Part shown: piece after piece, positions 5,274 through 11,206 of the stretch
Numbering within the stretch: position 1 is the first letter of the stretch
How the letters are laid out: every line of letters begins with the position of its first letter
From: a virus
Lineage: Duplodnaviria; Heunggongvirae; Uroviricota; Caudoviricetes
Length of the DNA: 35,527 nucleotides
Reading direction: 5' to 3' (one strand)
Virus record (IMG/VR): IMGVR_UViG_2734482778_000013
Coordinates: 1 to 35,527 of that record
The notes under the pieces: model-generated
The model's database searches: none
What the model was told of the DNA's origin: nothing
What the model saw: the letters and a program-made list of their open reading frames with translations, nothing else
Translations under genes and position numbers: made by a program

Positions 5274-5477
5274 ATGAACAAAAAGACCTGGTTTCGCGCA
5301 TACATGTGGGCGCTGGTATGCGTCCTCGTCTCTCTCATTCTGTATGCAGGACTACTCCCCCGAATGATTTCATCAGACAGCTCCTTCCTGGTATTGCTAG
5401 GCATTTTCATTGCCATGCTGTACCCGGCAGGCGTTGTTCGCCTTTTCAGTAAGTACATCGAGGAAATCAAACAATGA
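5274..5477 (+). CDS. Small two-TM membrane protein, partner of SPFH lipoprotein
   Basis: 67 aa with two hydrophobic helices (WALVCVLVSLILYAGLL; FLVLLGIFIAMLYPAGVV); stop overlaps start of downstream gene (ATGA). Confidence 0.55.
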   Translation: MNKKTWFRAYMWALVCVLVSLILYAGLLPRMISSDSSFLVLLGIFIAMLYPAGVVRLFSKYIEEIKQ

Positions 5478-6304
5478 AGAAATTCAAACTCTTTCAGATT
5501 CTCCCGCTTTTTGCCGCCATCCTGCTGGTTGGCTGCGATCGCGTTGAGCCTGGTAATGTGGGCATCAAAGTCAACAAGCTGGGCGACGACAAAGGCGTTG
5601 GCGAAGTGGTTGGCGTTGGCCGCTACTGGACTGGCTGGAATACAGAGGTTTACATCTTCCCGACCTTCAAACAAATGAAGACCTACGATGAGCCGTTCAG
5701 CTTCCAGATGAGTGACGGCACAACCATCGGCTATCACATCGGCGTGGCTTACAAGGTTGATCCATCCAAAGTTACCACAGTGTTTCAGACCTACCGCAAA
5801 GGCGTGGATGACATTACCGACACTGACCTGCGCCAGAAGATCGCCGATGCACTCAACCGACTGGCCAGCAAAATGACCACCGATAAGTTTATCGACGGTG
5901 GTAAGTCTGAACTGCTGGATTCAGCACTTAAAGATATTCAGGAAGAGATGACCCCCATCGGCATTCAGGTCATGAGCCTCTCTTATGTCGGTAAACCGGA
6001 ATATCCGCCAACCGTTATCGACAGCATTAACGCCAAAGTCACGGCAAACCAGAAAACCCTGCAACGCGAACAGGAAGTCAAGCAACGCGAAGCAGAAGCC
6101 AACATGCTGCGCGCAGAAGCTGCCGGACAGGCTGATGCCATTCGCACGAAAGCCCAAGCCGAAGCCGATGCCATTCGTTTACGCGGTGAAGCACTGCGCC
6201 AGAACCCCGGTGTTATGGAGCTGGAAGCAATTAACAAATGGAACGGCACGCTGCCGCAATACATGACCAGTAATACCGCTGTTCCGTTTGTTCCGGTGAA
6301 GTAA
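5474..6304 (+). CDS. SPFH/band-7 (prohibitin/HflK-C-like) domain lipoprotein
   Basis: N-terminal signal peptide with lipobox LLVGC; central band-7-like region and C-terminal Ala/Glu/Gln/Arg-rich coiled-coil segment typical of HflK/HflC-type proteins. Confidence 0.7.
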   Translation: MKKFKLFQILPLFAAILLVGCDRVEPGNVGIKVNKLGDDKGVGEVVGVGRYWTGWNTEVYIFPTFKQMKTYDEPFSFQMSDGTTIGYHIGVAYKVDPSKVTTVFQTYRKGVDDITDTDLRQKIADALNRLASKMTTDKFIDGGKSELLDSALKDIQEEMTPIGIQVMSLSYVGKPEYPPTVIDSINAKVTANQKTLQREQEVKQREAEANMLRAEAAGQADAIRTKAQAEADAIRLRGEALRQNPGVMELEAINKWNGTLPQYMTSNTAVPFVPVK

Positions 6305-6310
6305 TTAAAC

Positions 6311-6355
6311 CCGGCCAGTGAAAATCGCTGGCCGGAGCAGTATCAGGATTTTTTT
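6311..6355 (+). terminator. Rho-independent terminator after SPFH gene
   Basis: Hairpin CCGGCCAG-(9 nt)-CTGGCCGG followed by a T-run (GATTTTTTTAG). Confidence 0.6.
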
Positions 6356-6672
6356 AGTATGCCGTTCTCACAAAAAAACCGCTTGCCATGCCGCAATCAG
6401 TCAGGTTACATTTCCGCTGCACCTCATAAAACGGGTGCCGGGATTGGAACCCCGCACACTAACAGAGCGCACAACCGCGCCAGCGGTTTTTTTGTGCGTA
6501 CCGTATCGCCACGTCTTTTTCGCGTCAGAATTATGGTGGGGCGTACAGGGCCAGCATCAGCTGGGCCGGGTCCTCTGTTAGCCGGTAGTTCCAACCCTGT
6601 ACGTCTCACCACCCCGAGCTTGGAACCTCTGGATGGTGAGTTTTCAAAACTGACTAACAGAGAGGCCACACC

Positions 6673-6903
6673 ATGGCAAACCGCAAACAGCACCGCGCTA
6701 TCGCGGAGCGTCGTCACATCCAGACTGAAATCAACCGCAGACTTTTCCGCGCATTCCGCGTCGCGCAGATCATGCACATCAATATGCTGCATGAGCGCAG
6801 CCACGCGCTATCGAACAGCTATTCCGCCTCTGTTTTCAGCTATCTGGCGGATGATCTGCGCGAGCTTCAGCGGCTCATCCAGCAGCAAAACAAACTCCAT
6901 TAA
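6673..6903 (+). CDS. Hypothetical small basic protein
   Basis: 76-aa ORF with AGAGG RBS 7 nt upstream of ATG. Confidence 0.4.
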   Translation: MANRKQHRAIAERRHIQTEINRRLFRAFRVAQIMHINMLHERSHALSNSYSASVFSYLADDLRELQRLIQQQNKLH

Positions 6904-6975
6904 TTCTGGTTCCGGGCCTTTCCTGCACCTTGCGGCGGGAGGCCTTCGCACATCTGTAACAAGAGGATTGCCGCA

Positions 6976-7341
6976 ATGATTCTCGCCAACGACTTTCTTG
7001 AATACCTGCTCAACACAGAGCGCGATCTTGCCGTTCGCGTGCGTGACCGTTATGACATGTACCTGAAATCCCTGCCTGTACCGCAGCTCGCTGACGGAAA
7101 GATTGTTATTGATGGCCGCTACATGATTGACAGCCACGAGGGAAATTACAGGCTTTACCGCATTGAAGGCGGCACCCCGTCCGTTATTGGCATTTACCAG
7201 CGCCCATCCTCTGCAATCGTCGATGTGATTGCCGACAGCATCCGCATCACACATCGCCATGCCGACACAGAAGACACCGTGCTGGAAATTCAGCGGCTGG
7301 CTACAGTCTGCCGCGACACCCTGAATGGCATGACGAAGTAA
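6976..7341 (+). CDS. Hypothetical protein immediately upstream of gpA
   Basis: 121-aa ORF with AAGAGGA RBS; stop 7 nt before gpA start. Confidence 0.5.
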   Translation: MILANDFLEYLLNTERDLAVRVRDRYDMYLKSLPVPQLADGKIVIDGRYMIDSHEGNYRLYRIEGGTPSVIGIYQRPSSAIVDVIADSIRITHRHADTEDTVLEIQRLATVCRDTLNGMTK

Positions 7342-7347
7342 ATCACT

Positions 7348-10170
7348 ATGACGGCAGAGTACATCAGGGACTGGCAACAACCGCGCCACGCAGTGGGGCG
7401 TGAAGGAACGGGGATCCCCGCTCCTGAATCCGCGCTTTCCTCCTGGCTGGATGCCTACCGGGTAGAGAACGAGCGCCGCCAGGAAATGGCTGATGCGGCG
7501 TTCTCCGCCACGCCGCTGGGCAACCTGATTAATAAAAGCCTGGACGCACAGGAAAAACAGGACAAAACCATCACACTGGCAGGAGACGCCAGAAAACAGG
7601 CACGCGGCGCGGTGGATGAAGCCATGGCCTCGCTGCGCCTGCTGCCGTCCTATCTGCGCGATCCGCTTATTCGCCACCTCTCCTTCCTGCGCAAAAAACA
7701 GGAAGCCGATCGCCGGAAAGGCAAAAAGAGCTGGCAGGCAGAACGCTATGCACGCGGAACCCTGCGCAAGATATTCGATCGCATTAACCGTGCCGACAGT
7801 CGCTGGCTGACACCGGGTTATCGCTCCCTCGCCGGACGTGAACGCCTGGATGATTTGCTTTACCTGCCGCAGCTCAACAAACACCAGATACAGACGCTGG
7901 CCACCATGACGGCGGCGATGTTCAGCAGCACCTTCGAAAAACTCTGCGATGGCTTTGGCGCGACCGATGGCGAGCTGACCATGGATGTAACCCTGAAGGC
8001 GTATCAGATGCTGGCCCGCATGGCGTTACACCTGCACGCCATGCCTCCACATTATGACGCACTGACAACAGACAAAGACCGGAGGAACGAACCGGACACG
8101 GAGCTGCTGCCGGGCGCAATCCTTCGCCTGACCTGTGCGGAATGGTGGAAACGCAAACTGTGGCTGTTACGTTGCGAGTGGAGAGAAGAACAACTCCGCG
8201 CCGCCTGTCTGGTTTCCAGAAAAACATCACCCTATCTGAGCCAGGACGCGTTAAGCGAGTTTCGCGCACAGCGCGAGAAAACACGCGATTTCCTGAAAAG
8301 TTTCATGCTGGAAAATGAAGACGGGTTCACGATTGATCTCGAGACGGTGTATTACGCGGGAGTAAGTAACCCGGTTCACCGTAAGGCAGAAATGATGGCC
8401 ACCATGAAGGGGCTGGAACTTCTGGTCGAAGCCCGTGGCGACAAAGCGGTGTTTCTGACTGTCACCTGCCCGTCAAAATACCACGCCACAACGGAGAACG
8501 GTCATCCGAATCCCAAATGGAACGGGGCCACAATGCGCGACTCCAGCGATTACCTGGTTAACACGTTTTTTGCGGCGGTCCGCAAGAAACTGAATCGCGA
8601 CGGCCTGCGCTGGTATGGCATCCGCACGGTGGAGCCTCACCATGACGGCACAGTGCACTGGCATATGATGGTCTTTGCACATCCGGAAGAAATCGACAGC
8701 ATCGTGGCCATCACCCGCGATATTGCCATTCAGGAAGACCGCCACGAGCTGGGCAATGATATTACTCCGCGCTTTAAGGTGGAGTATGTCGACGGCTCAA
8801 AAGGCACACCGACCAGCTATATCGCCACCTACATCGGAAAAAACCTGGACAGCCGCGCCGTGGATGGCATCGACCCGAAAACGGGCAAGCCACGCGTTGA
8901 CCACGAAACCGGAAAATCAATGGCCGAGAGCGTGGAGCGCGCCATCGGCTGGGCGCGCCTTCACCGCGTCCGCCAGTTCCAGTTCTTTGGCATCCCCTCC
9001 CGTCAGGTGTGGCGTGAACTGCGCCGCCTCGCCAGCCAGATGGCACGCAACCCGGAAGGCCCGCAACGGCTGAAGGATGACGCAATGGATGCGGTTCTTG
9101 CTGCCGCTGATGCCGGGTGTTTTGCCTCCTACATTGAAAAACAGGGTGGCGTACTTGTTCCACGCAAGGACTACCTGATTCGCACCGCCTACGACCTCGC
9201 AGATGAGCTGAACGATTACGGCGAGCAGGGCGTACAGATTTACGGGATCTGGTCACCACTCATCGGGGAATCCTCCCGTGTGTGCACGCATCCGGATAAC
9301 TGGAAGCTGGTAAGACGCAAACCGGAAGCGGAAGACAGCGCCCGCGAAAATGGTTTTGACCTTCAGGGCGGCCCTGCCGCCCCTTGGACTCGTGGCAATA
9401 ACTGTCCCCGTGTACAGGAAACAGGCAACAACGGGACAGAACAGCCGGAAGAACGGCCAGCACCGTGGCCGCAGATTCCTGACGGCGTTGAAGTGAATGA
9501 ATGGATGCGCTCACTGAAACGGCACGAACGCCGGGCGCTGATGCGTTCGCTTCGTGACAAACAGGCAAAAAACAGCAGTGATGAAATGCAAAGCTGGACA
9601 CAGAGCCGCAAACAGCAGCGGCCTTTGCCTGATAACCACGAATTACTCGCTAAAGAATGGCGGGAGTCTGCTGAATCTCTCGGCCTGCATATTGGTGAAC
9701 AGCAGATGCAGCACCTGTTACGGGGCGGCAGTCTGTACGTTGACGGCAGCATCATTGCACCGCAGGGATTTGAAATTGTACGCAAACCGGATACCCGCCC
9801 GGACAGCCGAATCACGCAGCTCTGGCAGCGCCTGAGCCGTAATCACGGCGTAAGCAGCACGGAGATCCGCCATAACCCGGCCGCCAGCTATCTGGAACAG
9901 CTGGGGGCATCAGACCCCGAAGCCGCCGCACGTCTGGCATCCACACTTCAGCAGGACCAGAACACCATGAAAACCCCCGTTACCGTGCTTTCTGACATGC
10001 TGCGCGCCATCCGCGACGCAGAGCATGCACAGAGAATCAGTGAAACCACTGAACGCGCCCGCCGCAAAGCAGACCTGCTGCGGGGTGGCCTGACAAGTGG
10101 AAACAAAAAACAGACAGAAACGGGATTCACAAATCCCGTAAATGAGCAAAAAACGCGCCGCGATATATGA
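7348..10170 (+). CDS. A: Rolling-circle replication initiator endonuclease (P2 gpA family), with long C-terminal extension
   Basis: HUH motif VHWHMMVFAHPEE and paired catalytic tyrosines YIATYIGKN; 940 aa (longer than P2 gpA); position after early operon. Confidence 0.85.
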   Translation: MTAEYIRDWQQPRHAVGREGTGIPAPESALSSWLDAYRVENERRQEMADAAFSATPLGNLINKSLDAQEKQDKTITLAGDARKQARGAVDEAMASLRLLPSYLRDPLIRHLSFLRKKQEADRRKGKKSWQAERYARGTLRKIFDRINRADSRWLTPGYRSLAGRERLDDLLYLPQLNKHQIQTLATMTAAMFSSTFEKLCDGFGATDGELTMDVTLKAYQMLARMALHLHAMPPHYDALTTDKDRRNEPDTELLPGAILRLTCAEWWKRKLWLLRCEWREEQLRAACLVSRKTSPYLSQDALSEFRAQREKTRDFLKSFMLENEDGFTIDLETVYYAGVSNPVHRKAEMMATMKGLELLVEARGDKAVFLTVTCPSKYHATTENGHPNPKWNGATMRDSSDYLVNTFFAAVRKKLNRDGLRWYGIRTVEPHHDGTVHWHMMVFAHPEEIDSIVAITRDIAIQEDRHELGNDITPRFKVEYVDGSKGTPTSYIATYIGKNLDSRAVDGIDPKTGKPRVDHETGKSMAESVERAIGWARLHRVRQFQFFGIPSRQVWRELRRLASQMARNPEGPQRLKDDAMDAVLAAADAGCFASYIEKQGGVLVPRKDYLIRTAYDLADELNDYGEQGVQIYGIWSPLIGESSRVCTHPDNWKLVRRKPEAEDSARENGFDLQGGPAAPWTRGNNCPRVQETGNNGTEQPEERPAPWPQIPDGVEVNEWMRSLKRHERRALMRSLRDKQAKNSSDEMQSWTQSRKQQRPLPDNHELLAKEWRESAESLGLHIGEQQMQHLLRGGSLYVDGSIIAPQGFEIVRKPDTRPDSRITQLWQRLSRNHGVSSTEIRHNPAASYLEQLGASDPEAAARLASTLQQDQNTMKTPVTVLSDMLRAIRDAEHAQRISETTERARRKADLLRGGLTSGNKKQTETGFTNPVNEQKTRRDI

Positions 10171-10246: not shown

Positions 10247-11206
10247 ATGAAAATTTGTATCGACGACGGCTCCACCAACATCAAGCTGGCATGGACTGAG
10301 AACGGCGAACGCCGCAACGCCATCAGCCCGAACAGCTTCAAGTCGGAATGGTCTGCGCCGTTCGGTGGCACGCAGCCCGCGAACTACATGCTTGATGGTG
10401 TGCGCTATGGTTTTGATCCGGTCAGCGATCGCTTTGTCCAGACGACCGACACGCAATACCAGTACAGCGATGTGAATGTCATTGCCATTCATCACGCGCT
10501 GGTCAAATCAGGCATCACGCCACAGGAGGTGGATGTGGTTGTCACCCTGCCACTGAGCGAGTATTTCGACACAAACGCACAGCCGGACATGGCCAACATC
10601 AACCGCAAAAAAGCGAACGTCATGCGCCCGGTGGAGTACCAGAACGGCGAAGCATTCACTATCCGTAACGTACGGGTTATGCCTGAATCCATTCCGGCTG
10701 GCTTTAAAGCACTGGCCGACATGAGTCCGTTTGAATCCCTGCTGATTGTGGATTTGGGCGGAACCACGCTGGATGTGGCAAAGGTTCAGGGGCAGCTGGC
10801 AGGTATCAGCCAGGTGTTTTGCGATCCACACGTAGGCGTTTCTCTGATGGCCGATGCCGTGCTGTCGGTGATGGCCACCAACGGTATGCGCACCAGTCAC
10901 CACATCGCCAATACCATTATCGAACATCGCCACGATGAAGCCTGGCTGCGCCAGCACATCCACAATGACGCGCATTACGCCAGCCTGATGGCAGTTATTC
11001 GTGAAAAGGAAGAAACACTGAAACAACGCGTGATCCGCGCGCTGGCGGGTTTTTCGGGTTACGGGCGGGTGATGGTTGTAGGTGGAGGAGCGGAGATTGT
11101 GGCACCCGCTATCTGCGAAGCCTGCGGAGTTAATGCGACTTTCATCGCGGACGGGGTGCCACAGTTTGCTCTGGTTAATGGGCTGTACGCAATGGACCAG
11201 GAGTAA
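10247..11206 (+). CDS. parM: ParM/StbA-family actin-like segregation ATPase
   Basis: Strong resemblance along the whole length to plasmid R1 ParM as recalled (IDDGSTNIKL..., YSDVNV..HHAL, VMPESIPAG, LIIDLGGTTLD, GGGAE, LVNG); AAGGAAAAG RBS. Confidence 0.85.
   Translation: MKICIDDGSTNIKLAWTENGERRNAISPNSFKSEWSAPFGGTQPANYMLDGVRYGFDPVSDRFVQTTDTQYQYSDVNVIAIHHALVKSGITPQEVDVVVTLPLSEYFDTNAQPDMANINRKKANVMRPVEYQNGEAFTIRNVRVMPESIPAGFKALADMSPFESLLIVDLGGTTLDVAKVQGQLAGISQVFCDPHVGVSLMADAVLSVMATNGMRTSHHIANTIIEHRHDEAWLRQHIHNDAHYASLMAVIREKEETLKQRVIRALAGFSGYGRVMVVGGGAEIVAPAICEACGVNATFIADGVPQFALVNGLYAMDQE

Follow-up and report, generated by a model that had tools for sequence, protein, structure and literature searches.

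What is encoded by the interval at positions 6356-6672, which lies directly upstream of the replication operon of this prophage and appears to lack a gene? The original prediction, made for the window (the whole 35,527-nucleotide stretch of DNA that was analyzed here), held that the interval is highly structured and may produce a regulatory RNA. An Rfam scan of the whole window returns exactly two matches above the curated thresholds, and both of them fall within the interval on the + strand. The first is an IsrK-type small RNA at 6419-6493 (RF01394, 72.1 bits versus a gathering score of 50), and the second is a C4/CI-type antisense RNA at 6529-6616 (RF01695, 78.5 bits versus a gathering score of 45). 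Both of the structures that had been pointed out are present near the positions given for them, the scan and the sequences of relatives agree with a structured interval, and the suspected regulatory RNA proves to be a pair of RNA genes (isrK and C4) that is strongly supported by covariation.

Located inside the early operon, the interval is an RNA immunity module with an IsrK-C4 pair, of the type known from P1 (immI) and P4 (seqA-CI-seqC). Modules of this type are already known, and the mechanism is not new. An 'IsrK-C4 immunity system' has been described for P4, P1, P7, N15, and lambdoid prophages, with IsrK equivalent to seqA and C4 equivalent to CI (PMC3632133), and c4 and c4-a1b1 motifs have been listed (PMC2864571). 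What appears to be new is the P2-related setting, where the module would gate an epsilon-like gene and gpA. In the literature that we searched, whose coverage is incomplete, this module is not described in P88-like or other P2-like phages.

The prophage in the window is P88-like (genus Xuanwuvirus, family Peduoviridae) and related to P2. Phage P88 itself matches the interval with 88% identity over its full length, and the other members of the P88 group are homologous to it from position 6369 on. Homology also starts at 6369 in relatives without the SPFH/Band-7 cargo gene (5474-6304), which precedes the interval here and is present in only some relatives. The lambdoid Stx and mEp460 phages share about 73% identity from about 6405/6420 to 6662. 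Related sequences are common among hosts, since 1323 of 5426 complete E. coli genomes (about a quarter) match the interval, a count that includes related modules in other prophage types. A tRNA and tmRNA scan of the window found neither.

Three genes follow on the + strand. The presumed regulated gene (6673-6903) encodes an epsilon-like protein of 76 amino acids and begins directly downstream of the interval. It is followed by the second gene of the regulated operon, which encodes a 121-amino acid protein of unknown function (6976-7341, PHROG 3237), and, in the same operon, by the gene for a gpA-type replication endonuclease of 940 amino acids (7348-10170; Pfam Phage_GPA, E = 8.8e-130). An immunity repressor of the P2 C type with an HTH_3 domain is encoded on the - strand at 1063-1404 and has 35% identity to P2 C (E = 1e-22). 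The 76-aa protein matches the Pfam family PF25738 'Derepression' right at threshold (27.2 bits, cut-off 27), is a weak homologue of P4 epsilon (27% identity, E = 5e-7), and is named 'derepression protein' in RefSeq; a search for a solved structure of this protein found none. Judging from its sequence, the 76-aa gene likely encodes an antirepressor of the helper-derepression family. P4 epsilon inactivates P2-type repressors, and the C-type repressor at 1063-1404 is the likely target of the epsilon-like protein here.

The isrK gene appears to have its own signals for transcription. A predicted sigma-70 promoter (6383-6412, + strand) consists of TTGCCA and TACATT hexamers separated by an 18-nt spacer, and it is the sole promoter-like match between 5400 and 7400 in a consensus-based prediction. 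Both hexamers are invariant among relatives, and the predicted start site at about 6419 coincides with the position where the Rfam match to isrK begins. No LexA box was seen near this promoter on inspection by eye. The RNA family, RF01394, is the counterpart of P4 seqA, of the P1 a1/b1 region, and of the c4-a1b1 motif (RF03163). From 5' to 3', the RNA is composed of a first hairpin, a second hairpin that displays the patch a1 (TTGGAAC, 6444-6450) in its loop, a single-stranded linker that contains the patch b1 (CTAACAGAG, 6459-6467), and an intrinsic terminator, and all three hairpins are present in its predicted fold. The terminator hairpin (6473-6488) is followed by a run of seven U residues and was found by an independent terminator scan, again a consensus prediction.

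The long stem with a branched 44-nt interior that was originally proposed is real. It consists of 17 base pairs (6534-6550 with 6595-6611) that enclose 44 nt with two hairpins (6551-6564 and 6565-6586). This branched stem matches RF01695 over the full length of the model (positions 1-87), and it is therefore the C4 cloverleaf. Two patches in it are exposed for pairing: b' (CTCTGTTAG, 6573-6581) in the loop of the second hairpin and a' (GTTCCAA, 6588-6594) in a single-stranded segment. The sequence CACCACC forms the 3' end of the RNA after the closing stem. Mature RNAs of this family are released from a longer precursor, with RNase P acting at the 5' end, and of the features related to such processing, this 3' tail is the one that can be seen in the sequence here. 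The predicted fold of the long stem has a minimum free energy of -47 kcal/mol, and its z-score is -5.18 on the + strand versus -2.04 on the - strand. Among relatives, 99.8% of 540 pair cells in the C4 structure are paired, compared to 33-47% in a control where the pairing partners were slid, and 11 of its 27 pairs have changed on both sides in a compensatory manner. We also considered whether the locus might be a retron-like msr/msd element, an idea prompted by the inverted repeat around some 100 nt. This candidate was dropped on two grounds: the interior is isrK according to Rfam, and no open reading frame among the flanking ones that were scanned matches a reverse transcriptase family.

The closing stem of C4 has a 3' strand with a second possible partner. 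The CTCACCA sequence of this strand can pair with TGGTGAG at 6634-6640 to give a conserved alternative hairpin (6604-6640, + strand) that displays the patch a2 in its loop. This hairpin and the C4 closing stem are mutually exclusive. Hairpins like it occur with other stem sequences in mEp460 (CTCACCACCAA/TTGGTGGTGAG) and in P4 (GCTATCGCC/GGCGATAGC), which suggests that an unprocessed precursor chooses between folding into C4 and presenting its target.

Evidence for function comes from the way these patches vary. Viral contigs, scanned twice, and species-representative genomes, scanned once, yielded 163 related loci, and from these we derived a set of 47 and later 71 unique modules. The species-representative genomes contributed only 3 further loci, which added too little diversity for more work on the inverted repeat. 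In these relatives, the C4 stems, the promoter, and the hairpins and terminator of IsrK either hardly vary or vary in a compensated manner. In the 47 and then the 71 versions, almost all other variation is confined to six patches: a1 and b1 in IsrK, b' and a' in C4, and two targets downstream. The target a2 (TTGGAAC, 6620-6626, + strand) is the partner of a', and the target b2 (CTAACAGAG, 6654-6662, + strand) is the partner of b'. The latter overlaps the Shine-Dalgarno sequence of the 76-aa gene, GAGAGG at 6660-6665, and the start codon of this gene, the ATG at 6673, follows 7 nt farther on. The IsrK patches a1 and b1 are identical copies of the targets a2 and b2.

Complementarity is maintained among all three sets of patches even though the alleles differ widely. 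There are 6 alleles of a', 17 of b', and 27 combinations of the two in the 71 unique relatives. Pairing of a' with a2 (7-8 bp) and of b' with b2 (at least 7 bp) is kept in 71/71 of them, b' pairs with b1 over 9 bp in 70/71, and at least 7 bp are kept between a' and a1 in 69/71, whereas the average for non-cognate a/b combinations is about 4-5 bp. Pairs were also counted formally on 17 allele types. Here a1/b1 are paired with a'/b' in 100% of cells, 75 of which have changed on both sides, and a'/b' are paired with a2/b2 in 98.9% of cells, 73 of which have changed on both sides. The covariation score is 0.77 for the former interaction (0.15 in shuffles) and 0.74 for the latter (0.14 in shuffles), and sliding the partners reduces the paired fraction to 26-50% and 36-47%, respectively. 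Folding and covariance across relatives, the course that had been recommended for this interval, thus give a nearly fully paired C4 and co-varying a/b pairings. The rare exceptions to cognate pairing include an apparent recombinant, the IsrK half of which seems to come from another allele type.

The observed family membership of the two RNAs, their structures, the three-way complementarity with its co-variation, and the homologies of the surrounding genes are probably best explained as a whole by an IsrK-C4 switch that gates the epsilon-like gene and gpA. According to this proposal, the promoter at 6383-6412 would drive synthesis of an IsrK-like RNA of about 75 nt that ends at its own terminator, and transcripts that read through the terminator would contain the C4-like cloverleaf (6529-6616). 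The a' patch of C4 would then bind a2 and its b' patch would bind b2 over the Shine-Dalgarno sequence, such that the epsilon-like gene is left untranslated. By analogy with P1 and P4, the same pairing would lead to polar or premature termination and keep the 121-aa gene and gpA off in the lysogen. IsrK contains identical copies of both targets and therefore would titrate C4: its a1/b1 patches would act as decoys that compete for the antisense RNA, and abundant IsrK would lift the repression. Once made, the epsilon-like protein would inactivate the P2 C-type repressor of the phage. We infer the direction of regulation, the processing of C4, the polarity that extends to gpA, and the antirepressor activity of the 76-aa protein. 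Repression of gpA is proposed by analogy, and the switch could be bypassed, either by transcription that starts at an internal promoter or by transcripts that read through from the early promoter Pe.

An experimental precedent for a different mechanism is the isrK - orf45/STnc1160 - anrP locus of Salmonella Gifsy-1. In this system, IsrK acts in trans to turn on translation of the downstream antirepressor, which has been explained by an inhibitory fold in the long transcript and by translation of the upstream orf45, which starts in the C4-equivalent region; the C4-equivalent RNA, STnc1160, was not found to counteract IsrK (PMC4825925). Gifsy-1 and its lambdoid relatives (mEp460 and the Stx phages) resemble our module at about 73% DNA identity over isrK and C4. 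They have the promoter, IsrK, terminator, C4, and targets in the same layout and an AUG in the 5' end of C4. A corresponding AUG at 6533 is conserved in the P88-like module, within the 5' end of C4. It opens a frame (6533-6979, + strand) that crosses C4, the targets, and, out of frame, the 76-aa gene before it stops at an ATGA, where it overlaps the first bases of the 121-aa gene. All 148 codons of this frame are open in 43 of 50 unique relatives. It may be the counterpart of Gifsy-1 orf45 or an artifact of translating RNA genes.

If the P88-like module worked in this way, the long read-through transcript would be silenced by self-pairing of a1/b1 with a'/b', and short IsrK would bind a'/b' in trans and thereby free the start of the upstream ORF. 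Translation of this ORF would be coupled to the downstream genes, and C4 would be part of an mRNA leader rather than a free repressor. The pairing of a1/b1 with a'/b' is supported as well as that of a'/b' with a2/b2, and the conserved AUG and the ATGA overlap also fit this mechanism. However, it leaves unexplained why the a2/b2 patches at the ribosome binding site of the 76-aa gene co-vary just as tightly. The C4 cloverleaf is also conserved with compensatory changes and scores like the processed P1 and P4 RNAs, and the variation within the 76-aa gene follows its own codon positions rather than those of the overlapping frame. The downstream arrangements of the two systems differ. The regulated gene of Gifsy-1 and the lambdoid phages is a Rha/Ant-type antirepressor in frame with the upstream ORF, whereas here the epsilon-like gene is out of frame with it and is followed by replication genes. 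We consider a Gifsy-1-type mechanism rather unlikely as the main mode of control at this locus.

A second alternative is that control of gpA is mainly transcriptional, as in P4, with C4/CI pairing to nascent a1/b1 and a2/b2 and causing premature termination. The immunity region of P4 is organized as seqA - CI RNA/seqB - seqC, followed by eta, epsilon, orf151, cnr, and alpha, and it is homologous to our module element by element. Both Rfam models match it in the same order, with 74.9 bits for C4 (the CI RNA) and 60.8 bits for isrK (seqA). Copies of the target flank the antisense RNA on both sides, and an epsilon-family gene and a replication gene, epsilon and alpha in P4, lie downstream of CI in one operon. 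P4 CI has been described to cause premature termination through seqA and seqC (PMC4825925, PMC3632133). Against primarily transcriptional control here, the terminator scan found no terminator-like site between C4 and the 76-aa gene, and the overlap of b2 with the Shine-Dalgarno sequence favors translational control first. Attenuation as the main mode of control is thus quite improbable in our view; it is nevertheless compatible with the IsrK-C4 switch that we prefer, and the two are not exclusive. The early suggestion of an attenuator that controls entry into gpA is along the right lines. The C4/CI homologues of P4 and P1 do block translation and cause premature termination, and by analogy this might reach gpA, but the direct target here would be the ribosome binding site of the 76-aa gene.

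The P4 and P88-like cassettes differ in several respects. P4 is a satellite, whereas the prophage described here is a full P2-like phage. Its epsilon-like gene comes directly after b2, without an intervening eta or kil gene. Its replication gene encodes a gpA-type nickase that is non-homologous to the alpha primase-helicase of P4, its 121-aa gene has no homology to orf151, and DNA identity between the two elements is low. The lambdoid phage mEp460 hits both Rfam models in the order seen here.

The C4 RNA belongs to the same family, RF01695, as the RNA of the P1/P7 immI region for which the family is named. According to Citron and Schuster (1990), the order of elements in immI is reportedly a1 b1 - c4 - a2 b2 - icd - ant. 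P1 and P7 follow the same logic as the module here: the complementarity of a' and b' to a2 and b2 spans the ribosome binding site of a small first ORF, and a1 and b1 are duplicates located upstream. Differences in specificity between P1 and P7 resemble the allele variation seen in this module, although many more specificity alleles exist here (17 for b' and 6 for a'). The genes downstream are icd and ant in P1/P7, in contrast to the epsilon-like gene and gpA in the P88-like prophage.

Within the P2-like phages, an equivalent functional slot would be filled by Tum of 186, PsP3, and Fels-2, a small antirepressor that acts against the immunity repressor. LexA, and not an RNA, controls Tum, and it does so at a promoter of its own. 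No match to the isrK or C4 models was found in the parts of P2, 186, and PsP3 that include their early regions or in the whole Fels-2 genome; among the classical P2-like phages, the module thus sets the P88-like lineage apart.

These comparisons tie the immunity-epsilon cassette of the satellite P4 to a cassette in a phage that is related to P2 and encodes a C-type repressor like that of P2, and this link bears on how helper derepression evolved. The co-varying alleles also constitute a natural series of orthogonal antisense/target pairs, by which heteroimmunity among otherwise near-identical prophages becomes directly testable. As a more speculative idea, which we regard as rather doubtful, P88-like helper-type phages and P4-like satellites may share one ancestral cassette of IsrK-C4, epsilon, and replication genes in which the a/b patches serve as an RNA-level heteroimmunity 'barcode'. 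The short patches might then be diversifying, with at least 27 combinations reshuffled by recombination, because co-resident elements would act on each other in trans through these RNAs. If this were true, the barcode would set which prophages and satellites in one cell silence or derepress each other's antirepressor and replication genes.

Public records leave the region blank or assign it a coding sequence called 'Ash family protein' or 'transcriptional regulator', labels that refer to an ORF of 206 codons (6359-6979), and RefSeq has either nothing here or an 'ash family protein' pseudogene. What is recorded in this way is instead a regulatory switch composed of two RNAs. The earlier view that the interval has no convincing ORF needs to be qualified, since this ORF spans it, but the conservation of the region is that of RNA pairing and not of a protein. 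A reading in which the 206-aa Ash-family protein is the real product and the RNA structures are incidental could draw on the database annotations, on a match to Pfam PF10554 Phage_ASH (26.5 bits, cut-off 26), and on a frame that, in 49 of 50 relatives, has no stop anywhere in the RNA region. However, the Pfam match coincides exactly with the isrK and C4 DNA, and the obsolete 'cI ORF' of P4 matches the same family (59.7 bits), even though the immunity factor of P4 has been described as the CI RNA (PMC4825925, PMC3632133). Substitutions are compensatory for RNA pairing both within and between elements, and farther downstream the frame is out of phase with a gene that has a coding signature of its own. 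Numbers of variable sites at codon positions 1, 2, and 3 of the 76-aa gene are 20, 16, and 29, and the corresponding pairwise differences are 1840, 2292, and 4495. This third-position bias is therefore the signature of the 76-aa gene and not of the Ash frame. We find it very unlikely that the interval encodes an Ash-family protein. The Ash family looks to be largely a translation of conserved RNA genes, although ribosomes may translate some of the frame as a coupling ORF.

The other structure reported originally was a 12-bp inverted repeat (AAAAAAACCGCT at 6372-6383 and AGCGGTTTTTTT at 6482-6493). The repeat exists and is even longer than claimed, with 15 perfectly complementary base pairs between CACAAAAAAACCGCT (6369-6383) and AGCGGTTTTTTTGTG (6482-6496) and 98 nt between its arms. 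This length is beyond chance: when 6305-6672 was shuffled 1000 times with its dinucleotides preserved, no perfect inverted repeat was longer than 12 bp, and only 3 shuffles reached that length. An imperfect extension of the repeat to 28 nt (82%) is not conserved in relatives. What is not supported is an interpretation of the repeat as RNA structure. The predicted promoter of IsrK comes after the left arm, which is therefore not in the small RNA, and the variants are mostly uncompensated. The repeat is intact in 63 of 75 unique relatives. In nine others, A5 faces T7, and one more has a G-to-A change that is not compensated, compared with a single compensated variant (A6/T6) and one that is wobble-compatible. 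With 10 uncompensated variants among 75 relatives and with the repeat, including its left arm, missing from P4 and from the mEp460/lambdoid modules, we rejected the helix as a conserved RNA structure.

The same observations weigh against a DNA-level element around the isrK promoter, whether an invertible switch, a protein-binding site, or an origin-like site. The repeat is longer than expected by chance, flanks a 98-bp segment that contains the promoter, and starts at the left border of the module, but its absence from P4 and lambdoid modules and the uncompensated variants in relatives speak against such a role. More specifically, a query built with this 98-bp segment in the opposite orientation had no match of full length and high identity among the 1323 module-carrying E. 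coli genomes, AAAAAAACCGCT occurs in the 35.5 kb only as the two arms, and the P2 origin is annotated inside gene A. The protein-binding, origin-like structure that had been suggested is unsupported. A function of this kind is highly improbable.

The simplest interpretation assigns a different task to each arm. The left arm marks the left border of the conserved module and ends on the first base of the -35 hexamer; relative to the start predicted for IsrK, its A7 tract is at about -47 to -41, which would place an A-rich tract like the UP element of a strong promoter beside this hexamer. The right arm is formed by the 3' half of the IsrK terminator stem and the U tract. On purely theoretical grounds, the left arm is unlikely to act as an antiterminator: its sequence repeats the 5' half of the terminator and can pair with the 3' half. 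As a copy of the 5' half, it is therefore unable to pre-empt the hairpin. Five extra complementary bases beside the A/T runs, which have a chance probability of about 1e-3, are unexplained by this reading. The segment from 6369 to 6496 folds with a z-score of -4.93, and in a transcript that arrives from the upstream early operon, the two arms could form a 15-bp helix around IsrK.

A conserved AUG in the 5' end of the C4 antisense RNA gene opens a reading frame of 148 codons (6533-6979, plus strand); of 50 unique relatives, 43 keep it unbroken. This frame crosses the entire 76-aa epsilon-like gene out of phase, and its stop lies in an ATGA overlapping the beginning of the 121-aa gene. In both P4 and mEp460, a lambdoid phage with a related module, the frame that begins at the C4 AUG instead shares its phase with the first gene downstream. 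The frame in the window may be the equivalent of orf45, the upstream ORF in the Salmonella isrK locus of Gifsy-1, and would then act through translational coupling.

The Pfam family PF10554 (Phage_ASH) matches the translated isrK and C4 RNA genes of the window (6359-6979, plus strand) with a score of 26.5 bits, and it matches the obsolete 'cI ORF' of P4 (minus strand, 8168-8584 of locus L084) with 59.7 bits, likewise over translated isrK and C4 RNA genes. In RefSeq, the isrK/C4 RNA locus carries propagated calls of an 'ash family protein', both as CDS and as pseudogene. PF10554 may be largely an artefact of translated conserved RNA.

Two unusual allele arrangements occur among relatives L093-L172. 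In the alignment of these loci, the C4 hairpin-2 loop region of one relative contains two different alleles of the single-stranded b' segment in tandem (UUCUUUGCUCUC-CGGUG-UUCUUGUGUAGC), which could mean either that the antisense RNA has dual specificity or that the arrangement is a recombination intermediate. An apparent chimera also occurs, with IsrK copies (a1/b1) of a different allele type from the C4 segments (a'/b') and the copies at the ribosome-binding site of the 76-aa gene (a2/b2).

Upstream, the module adjoins an SPFH/Band-7 (HflC/K-like) gene (5474-6304, plus strand), a cargo gene found in only about one-quarter of relatives. A GC-rich hairpin (CCGGCCAG...CTGGCCGG, 6311-6335) lies 3' of this gene, with a T7 run merely 13 nt beyond it.

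The gpA homologue (7348-10170, plus strand) has 940 aa, compared with 761 aa for P2 gene A as judged by its coordinates. Because the Phage_GPA domain is confined to residues 179-503, this protein has sizeable N- and C-terminal extensions. Just 3' of gpA, this integrase-bearing P2-like prophage carries a ParM-type actin-like plasmid segregation gene (10247-11206 and following, plus strand), which hints at a plasmid-like maintenance phase; in P88, gp17 and gp18 are annotated as ParM and a partition protein.

A typical enterobacterial P88-like module, with 88% protein identity, is also present in a genome labelled Vagococcus sp., a Gram-positive genus (L088, NZ_JBQPOM010000071.1). This label likely reflects assembly contamination or mislabelling.
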